Below are positions 1-4,866 of a DNA stretch of 4,866 bases, one piece after another; position 1 is the stretch's first letter; each line of letters begins with the position of its first letter. The position numbers and the translations under genes were made by a program. Location of the stretch: IMG/VR virus record IMGVR_UViG_2671180415_000012. One strand, 5' to 3'. This DNA is from a virus. Its lineage: Duplodnaviria; Heunggongvirae; Uroviricota; Caudoviricetes. The notes under the pieces were generated by a model. The model saw only the letters and a list, made by a program, of their open reading frames with translations, was not told the DNA's origin and ran no database searches.

Positions 1-287
1 AACTAGATCTGAGTGATAAAAGCATATATTTCATAGAGTATCTAAATGACCAAGGACCAAATAGATACTTCCAAAAAGTCATGTATACTAATGGGTTTGA
101 AATTATTACATTAGATAGAACTGTATGGGAATTACGCAGATACTGCCGCTTACTAAATTATCAACTCAAAACCCCTAAAGGTGAGCTAATAGATATGCTA
201 GAAGTAGAATTACGGAAAATTGAGCACTCAAGGAATGTACCGCCACATAAATATAAAATCACAGATGGTTATTTGGAAAAGCGATGA
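1..287 (+). CDS. 3' end of an ORF that is open to the left window edge (about 95 codons visible, stop TGA at 285-287); unknown product, in an AT-rich segment
   Basis: Frame of the listed 81..287 ORF has no stop codon back to position 3, so the ATG at 81 is probably internal. Segment 1-600 is visibly AT-rich compared with the replication gene. No recognisable motif. Confidence 0.4.
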   Translation, partial: LDLSDKSIYFIEYLNDQGPNRYFQKVMYTNGFEIITLDRTVWELRRYCRLLNYQLKTPKGELIDMLEVELRKIEHSRNVPPHKYKITDGYLEKR

Positions 288-614
288 AAAGACAATAAAT
301 ATAATCACGGAAACATTTTAACATGGAAGAATCTATTTTTTGGGAAGACGAAAAAAAACACAATAAAAATTGGACGCTCACAACGTATCAGTTACCCTAC
401 TCAATATATACATCCTGAAAGCTTAGAGTTATTCAATAAATTTTTCAAAACTAACTAACTTATAGCGCTTATCTATTAATCCAGCAAACCAGAAAAGTGT
501 TTGCTGTTATGTACGTAATACTAAGCGACAAATATCCTCTTATGGCTAACTACCTGTCGGCTAAAACTTAATATTCCATGCTGTAATAAAATTTTTGTAT
601 TTTAACCCTTCACG

Positions 615-835
615 TGTTCACCTTTTGCTATTTTCTCTTTCAATTCATAATGTTAAGGGGTGAACAGTTTCACAAAAACTATTCACCAACTGTTCACCAC
701 TGTTCACCCTTGCAGCTCAATAAACAATCAAAAAGGTGAACAGTGAATAGTTTGGTGAACAGTTCATAAATAACTGTTCACCCTATAATATAATGATATA
801 AAAGACATTTATGACGGGGTGAACAGTGGTGAACA
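615..835. repeat. Iteron cluster, P4-type origin-like (ori or crr): octamer TGTTCACC / GGTGAACA, extended core ACTGTTCACC
   Basis: Perfect octamer copies at 615-622(+), 659-666(-), 691-698(+), 701-708(+), 735-742(-), 754-761(-), 775-782(+), 818-825(-), 828-835(-), plus degenerate copies at 680-687 and 742-749. AT-rich flank at 570-660. Sits immediately 3' of the alpha-like gene (stop at 850-852). TGTTCACC is, to my recollection, the type I iteron bound by phage P4 alpha protein. Confidence 0.8.
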
Positions 836-849
836 GTTATTCCATAAGT

Positions 850-2535
850 TTAATTTTTGCTATCGTCATTAGTGACCGATACACATGATGGCATCCAGTC
901 TTCTGATTCCTCCGTCAGTGTCACGTTTGAACGCAAACCGTGCTTCGTTTTCCGTTTCATATACTCCCTGCCATATTCCGCCATTGCCCCCGGCATATCT
1001 TTACCGAAGCGCGTCAGTGTTACAGGTTTACCAAACCCATGTGCCCTCATATAAGCCAGATAGGCATGATAGAGATACCTGCGTGGGCTGAATGGCACAA
1101 TTTCAGCATTACCCACTAACAGGCCATCACACATTACCGACGCCATGAGATAGCCGCAGAAGTCCACCAGCGAATCCCCCTCTCGCTTTATCGCCAGTGC
1201 TTCTTCAGATTTCTGCTGCTCATATAACAGGCGTCTGGCTTCGTCCTGGTCAGCAAACCGTGTAAGCAGATGGCGAATCACTACCGCCAGCTCACCTTCT
1301 ATTTTTTCCGCCAGCATTGGGTCGCGTTCGTTCTCCGGTACAACTTCCGAAAAATTGAATATCACCCGACGACGTGAGATCCCCCCGCTGCGGTCACTGA
1401 ATGACATGGCGTTATTGTTAACCGCCAGCACTACTGCCGGAATACGCGTTGAGTAGGGGGCTTTGTGTTTCGGGTCAATTGCCACCTTGTCACCGCCTGT
1501 AATGGCCTTAATCCCTGCCCCATCACCAGCGTAGCGGGTCATATCCGGCATGATAATCAGCGAAAAGCCAACCACTAACGCGCGTTCCCTTGCATCTTCC
1601 AGCGCCTTCATGCTTGCCGATACTGTGTTGGCCTTACCCGCCAGCATGGTGCAAATCTCCGCCATCACGCTTTTACCACTTCCCCCTGGACCTGTTACCT
1701 CAATGAATAACTGCCAGTCGTACCGGTTCGCCAGCACCATGAATAATGCAGCCAGTACGCGATCCGCCTTGCGGTCATTCTCAGCCACCGAACGGCGTAA
1801 CCACTTCCAGAAATTCGGCGCATGTGTTGCCAGCGTTTCCCCCTCTGCTGGTGGGCTGAAAGGTAATTCACTGGCAATTAACAACCAGTCGTTTTTGTTA
1901 TGCTCCCGAAAATTACCTGTTCTGGTATCAAATACCCCGTTACTGAATCCAATCAGGTTACGGGCTGTATTCCCCATTACAGGCAAACTTAACTTCATGG
2001 TATCGACCGCCGATTTAATGGCGTTCTGCGAATAGCTGATCTCCGCATCAATGAAAATCTGTGCCATAGCTCGCTGTAATTCTTTATCCTGTACTGGCTC
2101 CCATACAACGCCGTTGTAATGGTGAACAGTGTCAGAGTCAGCATGAATCGCCAGTTCACCGCCATAATGTGCCAGGAGAACTTCGCCGCGTTGACTTGCT
2201 CCCATCTGGTTAAGCGCCAGTGATGAAGCGTTATCGTCTTTTACCCGCTCTTTTTTCTTTACAGGCAGTTCAACTACCTTTTTCTTTTCCGCCTGCTCTG
2301 CCCGTTCACGTTCCAGATATTCGCGCCAGTTCTCCCGTTTCTGGCTGTGCATTCCTTCAGGGTAATAATCAGCATCCCTGACACCTGCCGCTGCCAGTTT
2401 CTGCCCGATGGTATTAACAAGCCCCGGACGCAATAACCCCGCCTGGTAGAGACGCACCCGATAGCGTCCGTCCGGTACGATTTGCAGCTTATCCAGTTCG
2501 GCAAGTTGTTGTTCTCCAAGCCAGACAGGAGGCAC
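850..2535 (-). CDS. P4 alpha-family replication protein (primase/helicase with SF3-type NTPase core and C-terminal origin-binding region); portion downstream of the N-run, true start lies upstream of the gap
   Basis: 561-aa open frame with Walker A GPGGSGKS and Walker B-like LIIMPD, a layout typical of phage/plasmid primase P4-family C-terminal helicase domains. Followed directly by the matching iterons. The GTG at 2535 is only where the frame meets the N-run, not a real start. Confidence 0.85.
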   Translation of the reverse strand: MPPVWLGEQQLAELDKLQIVPDGRYRVRLYQAGLLRPGLVNTIGQKLAAAGVRDADYYPEGMHSQKRENWREYLERERAEQAEKKKVVELPVKKKERVKDDNASSLALNQMGASQRGEVLLAHYGGELAIHADSDTVHHYNGVVWEPVQDKELQRAMAQIFIDAEISYSQNAIKSAVDTMKLSLPVMGNTARNLIGFSNGVFDTRTGNFREHNKNDWLLIASELPFSPPAEGETLATHAPNFWKWLRRSVAENDRKADRVLAALFMVLANRYDWQLFIEVTGPGGSGKSVMAEICTMLAGKANTVSASMKALEDARERALVVGFSLIIMPDMTRYAGDGAGIKAITGGDKVAIDPKHKAPYSTRIPAVVLAVNNNAMSFSDRSGGISRRRVIFNFSEVVPENERDPMLAEKIEGELAVVIRHLLTRFADQDEARRLLYEQQKSEEALAIKREGDSLVDFCGYLMASVMCDGLLVGNAEIVPFSPRRYLYHAYLAYMRAHGFGKPVTLTRFGKDMPGAMAEYGREYMKRKTKHGLRSNVTLTEESEDWMPSCVSVTNDDSKN

Positions 2536-2541
2536 GCTGTC

Positions 2542-2682
2542 NNNNNNNNNNNNNNNNNNNNNNNNNNNNNNNNNNNNNNNNNNNNNNNNNNNNNNNNNNN
2601 NNNNNNNNNNNNNNNNNNNNNNNNNNNNNNNNNNNNNNNNNNNNNNNNNNNNNNNNNNNNNNNNNNNNNNNNNNNNNNNNNN
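2542..2682. other. Run of 141 N (assembly gap or masked sequence) inside the replication gene
   Basis: Literal n characters in the sequence. Confidence 0.95.
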
Positions 2683-2840
2683 TGCTCTCCAAGCCAGACA
2701 GGTGGCACGTTATCGCCAGCCAGTCGCCCGTCCTGTTCCTGCCACTGTTTCGCATGTGCCCACGCATCACTACCCGCAAAAATGATGACTTCCGTCATTT
2801 TGTCACGCGGCTGGTGTTTTAAATTTGGCGCTTTTTTCAT
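2683..2840 (-). CDS. Probable N-terminal segment of the same alpha-like replication gene (MKKAPNLKHQPRDKMTEVIIFAGSDAWAHAKQWQEQDGRLAGDNVPPVWLGE...), separated from the body by the N-run
   Basis: ATG at 2840-2838 preceded by GGAGAGAG (2855-2848). The peptide ends in DNVPPVWLGE, the same motif that restarts the body after the gap. The frame differs by one nucleotide from the body, so the gap length is probably not exact. Confidence 0.5.
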
Positions 2841-3136
2841 TTCTGCTCTCTCCACGCGGCAATCATGTTTTTCAGTTCCTGTAGTTTTTTATCAACATCC
2901 ATACATGACACATGGTTATTTCTGGAAAGCGGGATTTCCCGCCTGAATCTGCTAATAAAGATCTCCACGTTCAGCGAACTATGAAATGAATAGCCATCAC
3001 GAATAAAATACACACGGTCAAACATCAGTTCTTTTACCGTTACTCTGTTACCGTTCTTATCCAGATAAATAGCGCCGGGGATAATTTTGGGGTGTGCATA
3101 ACCGCTGGCAGTCAAGCCAGATAAATACGTTCTCAT
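2837..3136 (-). CDS. Hypothetical 99-aa protein immediately upstream of, and translationally coupled to, the alpha-like gene
   Basis: ATG at 3136-3134. Its TGA stop (2839-2837) overlaps the alpha ATG (2840-2838) as ATGA. Globular-looking composition. Position matches that of the small cnr gene upstream of alpha in P4, but no sequence identity is claimed. Confidence 0.55.
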   Translation of the reverse strand: MRTYLSGLTASGYAHPKIIPGAIYLDKNGNRVTVKELMFDRVYFIRDGYSFHSSLNVEIFISRFRREIPLSRNNHVSCMDVDKKLQELKNMIAAWREQK

Positions 3137-3142
3137 GATTAT

Positions 3143-3438
3143 TTATCTCAGATTTGAATCAGTATTCGCTTTCTCTATGGCATTTAATGCATCTGTGGCA
3201 TTTTCAATGGTGCACCGTAACGAAATATCAAACTGCCCAAGCATTGCCAGTAACAAGCCAATATTACCCATGTCAATGCGCATAGCCTTTTCGTCATATT
3301 CCTCATTTTCTGACGCATGCCACATCAGGCTACCAATTGACGCAACAGCCATTGATATATTGTCAGTAGCCCCATCCGCAGCGGAATAAACCTTTTTAGC
3401 AATATCATGCTCACAGTTAAAATGCGGATTAATCAGGT
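3143..3438 (-). CDS. Hypothetical protein, 3' portion only (about 98 aa visible, ends ...AIEKANTDSNLR); 5' end lost in the N-run
   Basis: Open frame with protein-like composition running into the N-run at 3439. Stop TAA at 3145-3143, 6 nt before the next gene start, suggesting one operon with the 99-aa gene and alpha. Confidence 0.45.
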
Positions 3439-3633
3439 NNNNNNNNNNNNNNNNNNNNNNNNNNNNNNNNNNNNNNNNNNNNNNNNNNNNNNNNNNNNNN
3501 NNNNNNNNNNNNNNNNNNNNNNNNNNNNNNNNNNNNNNNNNNNNNNNNNNNNNNNNNNNNNNNNNNNNNNNNNNNNNNNNNNNNNNNNNNNNNNNNNNNN
3601 NNNNNNNNNNNNNNNNNNNNNNNNNNNNNNNNN
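3439..3633. other. Run of 195 N (assembly gap or masked sequence)
   Basis: Literal n characters in the sequence. Confidence 0.95.
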
Positions 3634-3690
3634 AACGACACTTGCGGGGCTTCGTCGTTTCAATTGCTGAATTGCATGTATCAGCACTTG

Positions 3691-3745
3691 TGGTATTCAC
3701 ATTACATTTAGGTGAATACCATTTCAAGTCTTTTTTGGTATTCAC
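3691..3745. promoter_or_regulatory. Operator-like repeat set: perfect inverted repeat TGGTATTCAC-N11-GTGAATACCA (3691-3721) plus a third direct copy TGGTATTCAC (3736-3745), overlapping a candidate leftward sigma70 promoter (-35 TTGAAA at 3727-3722, 17-nt spacer, -10 TAATGT at 3704-3699, minus strand)
   Basis: Read directly from the sequence. The repeats lie between the divergent plus-strand gene (start 3789) and the leftward operon. Half-sites resemble the origin iteron (GGTGAATA vs GGTGAACA). Confidence 0.45.
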
Positions 3746-3788
3746 TTTTGTATTACACTGCATCCCGTTATTAATGGGAGGTGCAAAC

Positions 3789-4094
3789 ATGTCCAGGAGT
3801 TCTGTTAACAATAAGTCACAGCAACTGAATGCCAGATTTCCACATGAAGTAGTGAGTGGCATTGAGGCATCCCTACAGCCAGGGGAAACTAAAGCGAATT
3901 TTATAGTTACGGCTGTACGCGGTGAGATCGCCAGGCGCCAGGCAGAAGGAAGTGGAGAAAATCCCCTTGTGTCTTCACTGGATGCCCTAGCTAATGTCGA
4001 ACAAATCGGCATCAAGGCAGCGGAGGAAATCGGGCAGCTTATCACCGTTGCACGCGAAGAACTCCAGCGCCGCAAGGCCAAAGAATCAGAATAA
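3789..4094 (+). CDS. Small 101-aa protein on the opposite strand from the flanking genes; candidate DNA-binding regulator/repressor (ribbon-helix-helix-like N-terminal region is a guess)
   Basis: ATG at 3789 preceded by GGGAGG (3776-3781) with a 7-nt spacer. Cys-free, protein-like composition (MSRSSVNNKSQQLNARFPHEVVSGIEASLQPGETKANFIVTAVRGEIARRQAE...). Operator-like palindrome upstream and a rho-independent terminator downstream. The 3642 start in the ORF track would read through the RBS and is less likely. Confidence 0.65.
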   Translation: MSRSSVNNKSQQLNARFPHEVVSGIEASLQPGETKANFIVTAVRGEIARRQAEGSGENPLVSSLDALANVEQIGIKAAEEIGQLITVAREELQRRKAKESE

Positions 4095-4151
4095 TCACTA
4101 TCAGCGCCGTGGTGTGAGGAACTCCGGCGCATTGCTTTACAGGCGCACACA

Positions 4152-4328
4152 ATGACCAACGAAGAATCAACCAAAAAAACATCACCTGCACGAAAAAGAC
4201 GACGCAGAAAGAAAGAGCATGAATCAGAACGATTCGCGCCGTGTTCTTTTGCCCTTGAGAAGTACCTTAAAGAATACTCATCAAAGGAGAGAGCTTCGCA
4301 GTTATGGCAACGCACTGAAACAGACTGA
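4152..4328 (+). CDS. Possible small basic ORF (58 aa, MTNEESTKKTSPARKRRRRKKEHESERF...), in the same frame as the preceding gene
   Basis: Below the ORF-track size cutoff. Only a weak AGG Shine-Dalgarno. Lies between the 101-aa gene and the plus-strand terminator. May be non-coding. Confidence 0.2.
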   Translation: MTNEESTKKTSPARKRRRRKKEHESERFAPCSFALEKYLKEYSSKERASQLWQRTETD

Positions 4329-4392
4329 TAGCATTGCCCACCAGCCTGATAGCGGCTATCATTGACATGCTTATGTTTAGTGTTTCCAAACT

Positions 4393-4420
4393 GGCGACCG
4401 CCCCAGGTCGCCTTTGTTTT
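4393..4420 (+). terminator. Rho-independent terminator for the plus-strand unit: stem GGCGACC / GGTCGCC, loop GCCCCA, then TTTGTTTT
   Basis: Perfect 7-bp GC-rich hairpin followed by a T-tract, located between the convergent plus-strand gene(s) and the alpA stop at 4440. Confidence 0.6.
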
Positions 4421-4439
4421 ATGTGTCATATGCTCCCCT

Positions 4440-4649
4440 TTACACTGCCTTACCTGAATTAATGCGATCCCGGCTTTTAACCCATTCCATAACCTCGGAC
4501 AGCAGCCACCCTACAGAACGACCGCCCAGATTAAGACGTGACGGAAAGCGCCCTTTTTTCTCCAGTTCGTAACGTGTAGTGCGGCACACTCCAGTTAACT
4601 TACGACATTCATCCTCACGGATTACGCGATCTTCATTTATTTCACGCAT
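4440..4649 (-). CDS. alpA: AlpA-family (P4 Vis-like) phage transcriptional regulator/excisionase-type HTH protein, 69 aa
   Basis: Translation MREINEDRVIREDECRKLTGVCRTTRYELEKKGRFPSRLNLGGRSVGWLLSEVMEWVKSRDRI... aligns by eye with the conserved TG..R.T.Y / FP / LG.RSVGW / EW..R positions of E. coli AlpA. The internal ATG at 4649 is preferred over the GTG at 4736 because it gives the usual family size and places the HTH near the N-terminus. Confidence 0.8.
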   Translation of the reverse strand: MREINEDRVIREDECRKLTGVCRTTRYELEKKGRFPSRLNLGGRSVGWLLSEVMEWVKSRDRINSGKAV

Positions 4650-4763
4650 ACAAAAACCTACATAAAAATTACGTATATAAACTTTTCTCTTAGCTGTAGA
4701 TATATGAGATCGGATATTACTTAGATTCTTTTTCACCTCTTAAATTAAAAACACAACCATGCT

Positions 4764-4866
4764 GGTAATGACTCCAACTTATTGATAGTGTTTTATGTTC
4801 AGATAATGCCCGATGACTTTGTCATGCAGCTCCACCGATTTTGAGAACGACAGCGACTTCCGTCCC
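4764..4866 (-). mobile_element. IS1 insertion sequence, right end (IRR GGTAATGACTCCAACTTATTGAT at 4764-4786), continuing beyond the window
   Basis: The reverse complement of 4764-4866 matches from memory the last about 103 nt of IS1 (...GGGACGGAAGTCGCTGTCGTTCTCAAAATCGGTGGAGCTGCATGACAAAGTCATCGGGCATTATCTGAACATAAAACACTATCAATAAGTTGGAGTCATTACC). Confidence 0.9.
4779..4866 (-). CDS. insB: IS1 transposase InsB, C-terminal end (partial; ...GRKSLSFSKSVELHDKVIGHYLNIKHYQ*)
   Basis: Minus-strand translation ends with the remembered InsB C-terminus. Stop TAA at 4781-4779 inside the IS1 terminal repeat region. Confidence 0.85.
   Translation of the reverse strand, partial: GRKSLSFSKSVELHDKVIGHYLNIKHYQ

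Follow-up and report, generated by a model that had tools for sequence, protein, structure and literature searches.

The window analysed here, the whole of a 4,866-nucleotide stretch from a Caudoviricetes virus record (IMG/VR IMGVR_UViG_2671180415_000012), carries an operon ending in a replication gene, rep, together with a cluster of short repeats (iterons) that starts 14 bp beyond the rep stop codon (850-852; Table 1). The rep start codon (ATG, 2838-2840) overlaps the stop codon of the upstream DUF4222 gene (ATGA), and the two genes are translationally coupled; the DUF4222 gene occupies the same position in L001, a complete related island, and in EcCICFT073. Further upstream lies alpA, and transcription is mostly unidirectional, an arrangement that serves as a criterion for PICIs. 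On its alpA side the window terminates in IS1, and the int, capsid and TerS genes are known only from relatives.

Table 1. Features of the window, by position in the 4,866-nucleotide stretch.
Feature	Position	Strand	Remarks
Iteron array, predicted origin of replication	615-835		9 perfect TGTTCACC and 1 imperfect copy
Perfect TGTTCACC	615, 691, 701, 775	+	
Perfect TGTTCACC	659, 735, 754, 818, 828	-	
Imperfect iteron	680		TATTCACC, one mismatch
Origin module A	713-850	+	Colinear alignment with P4 ori core 9288-9430
Origin module B	592-730	-	Repeats module A in inverted, slightly degenerate form
AT-rich spacer between inverted iterons	783-817		35 bp; 77% A+T
Second AT-rich spacer, between inverted iterons 615+ and 659-	623-658		36 bp; 75% A+T
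rep (annotated 'pri-rep' / 'DNA primase family protein')	850-2840	-	605 aa, gap closed
C-terminal winged-helix origin-binding domain (OBD)	889-1179	-	aa 497-593 of 605
SF3 helicase ATPase core	1369-1695	-	Pfam DUF5906 (PF19263), 1.1e-10
Walker A GPGGSGKS	1669-1692	-	Aligned with P4 alpha
D5_N domain	1795-2184	-	Pfam PF08706, 1.6e-13
N-terminal domain (aa 1 to ~135), no named family, and Lys/Glu-rich linker	2263-2840	-	Interrupted by N run
N run	2542-2682		Flanks overlap
DUF4222 gene, upstream member of rep operon	2837-3136	-	Pfam PF13973, 7.4e-17
alpA (PICI activator/excisionase family)	4440-4649	-	Pfam PF05930, 1.7e-16

The octamer TGTTCACC occurred 10 times without mismatch in the whole window against an expectation of 0.11, a number reached in none of 200 shuffles. 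Nine of these copies were confined to the 221 bp of the array, four on the plus strand and five on the minus strand, which agrees with the initial annotation of at least nine perfect octamers in both orientations within about 220 bp; the AT-rich DNA noted at the repeats was likewise found (65% A+T for the array, 75-77% for its two spacers). As eight of the nine array copies have AC just before the octamer, the repeat can in effect be written ACTGTTCACC. L001 has an identical array. No promoter or terminator was found in a scan of 380-960, no DnaA box, IHF site or GATC lay within or adjoining the array, and a full-text literature search for TGTTCACC returned unrelated primer sequences only. The tenth perfect copy (2121-2128) lies inside rep; because it is not conserved in the homologues from P4, vB_KppS-Ant and CFT073, it was rejected as a site resembling the P4 'ori2' and is treated as probably due to chance. 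A candidate second iteron cluster, formed by three GGTATTCAC repeats at 3692-3755 that bear a resemblance to the TATTCACC variant, was rejected because these repeats are missing in L001 despite the same Rep and iterons. Since L001 and CFT073 have other repeats at that place, the GGTATTCAC repeats track the local regulatory allele and not Rep.

As written, rep measures 1991 nt from start to stop, which is not a multiple of 3, and its frame is therefore broken. A stretch of approximately 27-32 nt is present on both sides of the N run with 2-4 mismatches, and the run most likely marks a scaffold gap where contig ends overlap rather than real sequence. Joining the flanks at the overlap gave a 605-aa protein that differs from RefSeq WP_001547125.1 at two residues; the 561-aa translation reported initially was an artefact of the N run. 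The repaired protein contains a D5_N domain, an SF3 ATPase with Walker A and B motifs and a C-terminal winged-helix OBD. Both Walker motifs (GPGGSGKS and LIIMPD) align with those of P4 alpha, so that the repeats do lie directly after a Walker A/B NTPase gene, as originally described. The ATPase core matched SaPI5 PriRep5 (PDB 7OLA, E 2.6e-10), and the OBD matched that of P4 alpha (PDB 1KA8, E 1.8e-24) as well as Pfam Pox_D5 (PF03288, 2.5e-12). Rep residues 145-595 and P4 alpha residues 320-771, which comprise the helicase and OBD, are 51% identical, and assignment of these two parts of Rep to the P4 alpha family is supported at the level of sequence similarity. Among the similarities that had been proposed as checks, those to P4 alpha and D5_N were found, whereas the NCBIfam model TIGR01613 gave 95.4 bits, under its curated cut-off of 108.7, though with an E-value of 2.8e-27; by this comparison Rep qualifies as a TIGR01613 relative scoring under the trusted cut-off.

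The earlier designation of the gene as an alpha-type primase/helicase thus held for the helicase and OBD and failed for the primase half, since the zinc-finger/Toprim portion of alpha (residues 1-319) is missing from Rep and a different 144-aa domain, without demonstrable primase features, stands in its place. An hhalign comparison of the N-terminal family with alpha 1-344 gave a probability of 0.3%, a Pfam search of the domain at E<=10 gave no match, and Foldseek gave no significant match to the PDB. The N-terminal 146 residues of Rep contain no cysteine, and hence no zinc ribbon. The consensus Toprim motifs used for comparison are EGxxD and DxDxAG; at the corresponding places all 24 of the 24 diverse family members aligned carry FAGSDAW and R-x-Y/F-x-AG, and the family alignment lacks the zinc-binding domain as well as the catalytic residues of Toprim, the Glu that follows strand 1 and the DxD that follows strand 3. 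On the basis of the missing motifs and weak fold matches, Rep is probably not a primase, and as regards the primase part there is no support for its RefSeq label 'DNA primase family protein'. The N-terminal domain family, with 137 clusters in a set of 1.84 billion representative proteins, is small, and the domain is joined to three unrelated helicase bodies, namely D5/SF3, DUF927 and RepA-like AAA_25. The 'Pri' of the enterobacterial PICI Pri-Rep could be not a primase but a catalytically dead Toprim-like adaptor that might bring in a primase or replisome from the host or helper.

The array is built from two inverted modules. In each, iterons are followed by one in inverted orientation, then by an AT-rich spacer of ~35 bp and finally by a pair of iterons 10 bp apart. 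Module A reads 735-, (743-), 754-, inverted 775+, the 35-bp spacer, 818- and 828-, with spacings of 43 bp and 10 bp that are the same as in P4 (9353, 9396, 9406). Module B reads 701, 691, 680, then 659, the 36-bp spacer and then 615, and is supported by the inverted repeats detected in the array (I1, I2). In the origin alignment, the iteron columns were 88% conserved versus 46-62% for other columns, which shows that the iterons are kept while the spacers drift. The spacers equivalent to 783-817 have 83% A+T in P4 ori and 86% in vB_KppS-Ant, and 783-817 is the proposed melting site. As TGTTCACC is the P4 type I iteron, the repeats do match a P4-type module, in accordance with the initial annotation, and the alignment points to homology between this origin and P4 ori.

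The island context was provided by relatives, above all L001, which is 99.4% identical over positions 1-2536 of the window and forms a 10.9-kb island between thiM and rcnR in a complete genome. This island carries all five PICI core components: int, alpA, pri-rep, a protease-capsid (protease-MCP) fusion and a TerS-like DUF1441 gene (phrog_141, 2.4e-57). [quoted passage not shown] 2023, PMC10085698). The window AlpA is 45% identical to P4 Vis; AlpA/Vis-type regulators are common to PICIs and P4-like satellites, and this gene therefore does not discriminate between them. The window as a whole had no match in a complete E. coli genome, and the right-hand part (3634-4763) is only ~89-92% identical to other islands, so that the window is either mosaic or of another lineage. 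We conclude with high confidence that the region is the replicon of an EcCICFT073-type Gram-negative PICI, composed of a self-loading SF3 initiator-helicase, Rep, and a sole origin immediately 3' of its gene. Such an element is of a known kind, and its replication module is an ordinary one for PICIs (phage satellites) of the E. coli type. With respect to the alternatives named at the outset, a P4-like satellite or a PICI, the latter is borne out by EcCICFT073 synteny and Pri-Rep homology, while the former does not agree with the single array and the lack of sid, psu, delta and epsilon.

One competing explanation is that of a P4-like satellite in which the array is crr, the cis replication region 3' of alpha, and ori lies at a distance. 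The iteron is the same, the position fits (P4 crr starts 50 bp after alpha), and iterons 691/701/735/754/775, in the order + + - - +, look like one 120-bp crr unit; however, in the alignment with P4 ori and crr that had been suggested earlier, the modules were colinear with the ori core and aligned better with it than with crr. Furthermore, no second iteron array was found in the complete relatives L001 and L003, even allowing one mismatch, whereas P4 itself has two iteron regions; in the window itself there was none outside the masked DNA (195 bp masked, 3439-3633). Because complete relatives have a single array, it is predicted to be the sole origin of the island, and the choice between ori and crr, which had been considered undecidable, is settled by these related islands. 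The proposed search for sid, psu, delta, int and att sites recovered int and the ~75-bp direct repeats at the ends of L001 but none of the three P4 genes: tblastn with Sid, Delta and Psu, the products of the capsid-hijacking operon of P4, gave no match at E<=0.01 in the window, L001, vB_KppS-Ant or EcCICFT073, and the helper derepressor epsilon (Ash), cI and cnr had no tblastn match in the window, L001, Ant or CFT073. Among all P4 proteins used as tblastn queries, only int, alpha 320-771 and Vis/AlpA found matches. The crr reading is therefore highly improbable and already largely refuted. It is also improbable, if somewhat less so, that the array serves mainly as a Rep-titrating, copy-control or incompatibility site, or as a crr-like Rep-dependent enhancer, with initiation elsewhere. 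Plasmid iteron arrays can act in copy control, and P4 crr binds alpha yet is not the start site (P4 annotation), but the complete islands have no other iteron site, and the succession of iteron, AT-rich spacer and iteron matches the P4 ori core and PICI origins in layout.

An assignment of the module to a conventional prophage or plasmid with a D5-like primase-helicase is the least probable of the readings. Homologues of 35-38% identity do occur in full-size phages, e.g. Serratia phage Scapp (43 kb), but near-identical copies reside in the 10.9-kb att-flanked island, which lacks tail and lysis genes, and 1169 of the 1171 matching places in E. coli genomes were chromosomal; the original view of a satellite-type replicon rather than a conventional prophage is thereby upheld. 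Some weight, albeit well short of an even chance, goes to the explanation that the replicon type is right but that this copy has decayed into an immobile remnant with an origin that has ceased to fire. An IS1A end starts at ~4764, next to alpA (~115 bp beyond), the neighbouring HEPN gene has a nonsense codon relative to L001 (TTA to TGA at 286), and rep is interrupted by the N run and its frame is broken as written. Within ~30 nt, the left gap flank has 4 differences from L001, a sign that the assembly may have mixed up two paralogous islands. Decay of such islands by deletion is suggested by database proteins in which the Rep N-terminus is fused to SSB or PerC sequences. On the other hand, all nine iterons are perfect, rep with the overlap closed differs from an intact RefSeq protein at only 2 of 605 residues, and the gap resembles a scaffolding artefact and not a mutation.

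For the PICI replicon, a course of events can be proposed by analogy with P4 alpha, the SaPI Reps and EcCICFT073. A helper phage would induce AlpA and thereby transcription of the operon ending in rep; Rep hexamers would bind the iterons via their C-terminal domains on either side of the AT-rich spacer, melt the spacer and unwind 3' to 5', and the island would then be replicated as a circle and as concatemers for packaging. Given an N-terminal domain without zinc ribbon, Toprim Glu or DxD, priming would probably not be by Rep but, more likely, by a primase of the host or helper; this is the step of which we are least certain.

P4 alpha-like gene and P4 iterons at this locus mark a PICI and not a P4-like satellite, a distinction that prevents misannotation. 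Because this PICI allele shares both iteron and ori-core architecture with P4, alpha and Rep might each activate, or titrate, the origin belonging to the other. We regard the two linked readings jointly, a 'Pri' that is a dead Toprim-like adaptor and origin cross-talk between P4 alpha and Rep, as speculative and rather unlikely. If true, cross-talk would let two satellite families that share a cell hitchhike on, or interfere with, each other at the level of replication, and the two ideas would bear on the competition of co-resident satellites and on the priming of primase-less SF3 initiators in bacteria.

Among known systems, EcCICFT073 (1,377,930-1,388,654 in CFT073) has the same order of alpA, ylcI/ynfO, icd-like, DUF4222, pri-rep and ori; identity to its Pri-Rep is 48.8% along the full length (residues 1-592) and 69% in the N-terminal domain. 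In both elements rep is followed directly on its 3' side by an origin with iterons around AT-rich DNA, as described for Gram-negative PICIs, in which two iteron sets surround an AT-rich region (PMC6092414). An EcCICFT073 rep-ori segment maintained a thermosensitive plasmid, with rep- or ori-mutated plasmids as controls (Fillol-Salom et al. 2018, PMC6092414). The two elements differ in the iteron (TGTCTACC/GGTAGACA in EcCICFT073 versus TGTTCACC here), in the OBD, which is only 35% identical, and in the cargo downstream of the origin, which comprises ssb, perC, capsid and decoration genes in EcCICFT073 and, unlike it, HEPN, the protease-capsid fusion and the TerS-like gene in L001.

The closest phage-database relative of Rep is that of vB_KppS-Ant (LR881103), a 16.5-kb induced element with capsid, portal, connector and terminase genes (cf-PICI-like); identity is 76% overall, 90% in the helicase and 80% in the OBD, and this element likewise has one array, with 8 perfect TGTTCACC copies in the same module layout, 31 bp after rep. 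Its N-terminal domain, however, is only 47% identical, and its packaging module is different and much larger. These comparisons show that satellite replication modules are mosaics in which the N-terminal domain, helicase and OBD have different nearest relatives. P4 shares the type I iteron, an array directly 3' of the gene in the position of crr, and the ori core, colinear with each module down to the 43-bp and 10-bp spacings and the AT-rich 35-bp spacer. It differs in that ori and crr lie 4.5 kb apart and are both required in cis, whereas a single array is present here, in that there is no terminator between gene and array here, and in its zinc-finger/Toprim primase half, cnr, sid, psu, delta and epsilon, none of which occur here.

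SaPI1 Rep1 and SaPI5 PriRep5 are likewise SF3 ATPases whose origins have an AT-rich centre with at least two opposed iterons on each side, and in the SaPI Reps a C-terminal winged helix reads iterons immediately downstream of rep. Their iterons are 5-6 nt long, their hosts Gram-positive and their N-terminal regions not recognisably similar, and homology to the window Rep is detectable in the ATPase core only. These proteins are self-loading 3'-5' SF3 hexamers that bind the downstream iterons through the winged helix (PMC9371898). Across satellite families, the OBDs of Ant (80% identical) and P4 (49.5%) go with TGTTCACC and that of CFT073 (35%) with TGTCTACC, so that, as judged from these alignments, iteron identity is shown to track OBD similarity.

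Ten copies of the octamer TGTTCACC were found in the 4866-bp window against an expectation of 0.11, a count reached in 0 of 200 shuffles, and nine were clustered at 615-835, so that the repeat cluster reported in the initial annotation was real. This array (65% A+T) begins 14 bp beyond the stop codon of the minus-strand helicase gene rep (850-852), and because AC precedes eight of its nine copies, the functional unit is nearer ACTGTTCACC. The tenth perfect copy (2121-2128) lies inside rep, where its codons specify T-V-H-H in the D5_N domain. L001, a near-identical island locus in the complete E. coli chromosome NZ_CP087578, has this copy too, but it is probably a chance occurrence since it is missing from the homologues of vB_KppS-Ant (LR881103; Ant), EcCICFT073 and P4.

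Features of the window and their coordinates
Feature	Position	Strand	Remarks
TGTTCACC iterons	615, 691, 701, 775	+	perfect copies
TGTTCACC iterons	659, 735, 754, 818, 828	-	perfect copies
Imperfect iteron	680		one mismatch to TGTTCACC
AT-rich spacer	623-658		between inverted iterons; 75% A+T, ~35 bp
AT-rich spacer	783-817		between inverted iterons; 77% A+T, ~35 bp
HEPN-domain gene, C-terminal part	1-458		converges on origin
Walker A GPGGSGKS	1669-1692	-	in rep
Second N run	3439-3633		195 bp
Three GGTATTCAC repeats	3692-3755		two direct, one inverted
Small ORF, 58 aa	4152-4328	+	phrog_21027, 7.8e-13; Arg/Lys-rich N-terminus

Whether the array corresponds to ori or crr had been considered undecidable, and the complete relatives settled it: L001 and Ant each carry a single array directly after rep, even with one mismatch allowed. 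P4 has its crr (4291-4590) 50 bp past alpha and its ori (9310-9413) 4.5 kb off; the window array would thus be classed as crr-like by position, and by architecture it consists of two inverted P4 ori cores. The proposed alignment with P4 ori bore this out: P4 9288-9430 and the Ant origin were colinear with two stretches of the window, 713-850 read forward and 592-730 read as its reverse complement. In the order that they have in common, three GGTGAACAG-type repeats are followed by an inverted TGTTCACCC, then by ~35 bp of AT-rich spacer and finally by a pair of GGTGAACAG 10 bp apart. Spacings of 43 bp and 10 bp equal those of P4 (9353, 9396, 9406), and conservation was 88% in iteron columns versus 46-62% in other columns. 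Being the sole array, it must be the predicted origin of replication. It matches the published rule for PICIs, in which ori lies immediately 3' of rep and two iteron sets flank an AT-rich region, a rule put to the test for EcCICFT073 by means of a thermosensitive plasmid (PMC6092414); SaPIs have the same rep-then-ori layout (PMC9371898).

The 561-aa reading frame assigned to rep was truncated by an N run (2542-2682), and the gene as written measures 1991 nt from start to stop, which is not divisible by three. Window 1-2536 matched L001 14001-16536 at 99.4% and window 2683-3438 matched L001 16510-17265 at 97.8%; the two pieces overlap on L001, and ~27-32 nt are therefore repeated on either side of the Ns; the last ~30 nt of the left flank have four mismatches to L001 and the right flank has none. 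The run is most simply read as a scaffold gap joining overlapping contig ends, perhaps from two related island copies in the genome. Closing the overlap yields a 605-aa Rep that differs at 2 residues from RefSeq WP_001547125.1; its start codon (ATG, 2838-2840) shares bases with the stop codon of DUF4222, the gene upstream (ATGA). Masked DNA in the window amounts to 336 bp.

Assignment of Rep to the P4 alpha primase/helicase type held for the helicase and origin-binding parts and failed for the primase half. Pfam detected D5_N, DUF5906 (SF3 ATPase) and Pox_D5; residues 145-595 were 51% identical to P4 alpha 320-771, residues 497-593 matched the crystal structure of the P4 origin-binding domain (1KA8, E 1.8e-24), and the ATPase core matched SaPI5 PriRep5 (7OLA, E 2.6e-10). 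The TIGR01613 model scored E = 2.8e-27, yet its 95.4 bits fall under the curated cut-off of 108.7. The N-terminal 144 residues gave no BLAST match to the alpha primase half, an hhalign probability of 0.3% against alpha 1-344 and no Pfam match even at E 10, and they contain zero cysteines and therefore no zinc ribbon. Toprim enzymes have EGxxD and DxDxAG where this family has the invariant motifs FAGSDAW and R-x-Y/F-x-AG, so that the catalytic acids are missing in every member aligned. Judged from sequence, 'primase' is an inherited label, unsupported as a function, because primase matches, zinc ribbon and catalytic acids are all absent. The family is small, with 137 clusters at 50% identity in a set of 1.84 billion proteins. 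In all cases the domain sits at the N-terminus, and it is joined to three different helicase bodies (D5_N/SF3/Pox_D5, DUF927 and RepA-like AAA_25). In four database proteins from outside the window (P0002, P0005, P0092, P0051) it is fused directly to SSB or PerC. Because pri-rep and the origin are closely followed by ssb and perC in EcCICFT073, these fusions look like in-frame deletions that lost helicase and origin in decaying islands. This unnamed domain is one of two points worth following up.

Between a P4-like satellite and a PICI, the two identities initially offered, the evidence favored the latter. The L001 island (10.9 kb, thiM-rcnR interval) is flanked by imperfect direct repeats of ~75 bp (9925-10005 and 20770-20845, core TGACCACACAACTGACCACACATTT), likely attL and attR, and encodes int, DUF6387, alpA, ylcI/ynfO, an icd-like gene, a hypothetical protein, DUF4222, rep, HEPN, a ClpP-protease/major-capsid fusion and DUF1441, a small-terminase homologue (phrog_141, 2.4e-57). 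The full set of five core components that de Sousa et al. 2023 (PMC10085698) give for PICIs is present in it; for int and the packaging genes the evidence comes from relatives rather than the window. EcCICFT073, the experimentally studied E. coli PICI (PMC6092414), has the same order of alpA, ylcI, icd-like, DUF4222 and pri-rep, and the Pri-Rep that it encodes shares 48.8% identity with the window Rep over the full length. With all P4 proteins as tblastn queries, int, alpha 320-771 and Vis/AlpA were the only matches; sid, psu and delta, for which a search had been suggested, gave none, nor did epsilon, cI and cnr. Fillol-Salom et al. separated PICIs from P4 by the same pattern (PMC6092414). 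Ant, the best phage-database relative of Rep (76% identity), is an induced element of 16.5 kb that encodes capsid, portal and terminase of its own and therefore looks like a cf-PICI. The initial interpretation was thus half right: the module is a predicted routine PICI rep-ori replicon whose iteron and origin core are common to P4.

This island copy may be decaying, given an IS1 end at alpA, a HEPN nonsense codon and the finding of no complete E. coli genome that matches the whole window. The IS1A-family end (~4764-4866) lies ~115 bp past the alpA start; the BLAST match confirms only IS1A, and the IS1 inverted repeat places the boundary at probably ~4764. DUF6387 and int occupy this place in relatives, and the present copy may have become separated from its integrase. 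Relative to L001, a TTA-to-TGA change at 286 (nonsense codon 285-287) removes the last ~57 HEPN residues; what remains is probably a pseudogene, once with an accessory or defence role. The second N run hides the icd-like gene region and truncates a minus-strand gene (3143-3436, phrog_15327 family) in its 5' part; to its right, likeness to L001 ends and other islands match at only 89-92%. The GGTATTCAC repeats occupy the promoter region from which the icd-like/rep operon and ylcI/ynfO diverge, where L001 and EcCICFT073 carry other repeats (GTAAG/CTTAC-type and GGTGTGGCCCAC x2). Those of the window probably serve an allele-specific regulator as operators and are probably not Rep sites. The 58-aa ORF sits between ylcI/ynfO and alpA.

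Rep domains, iteron geometry and the conservation pattern were seen directly, and the following steps are modelled on P4 alpha, SaPI Reps and EcCICFT073. Helper-induced AlpA would turn on the operon, winged-helix domains would dock Rep hexamers onto the iterons flanking an AT-rich spacer, and the hexamers would open the spacer and then unwind 3' to 5'. Copying of the excised circle by host polymerase would yield concatemers for packaging, with primers more likely supplied by a host or helper primase than by Rep itself.

Comparison with known systems gave different identities for each part of Rep: the N-terminal domain was 69% identical to EcCICFT073 and 47% to Ant, with none to P4; the helicase 47%, 90% and 51% to EcCICFT073, Ant and P4, respectively; and the origin-binding domain 35%, 80% and 49.5%. 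The three parts therefore have separate histories. The iteron of EcCICFT073 is TGTCTACC and that of both Ant and P4 is TGTTCACC; iteron identity therefore tracks the origin-binding domain. Cross-talk in replication that may occur between P4 and this PICI is the other point worth following up.
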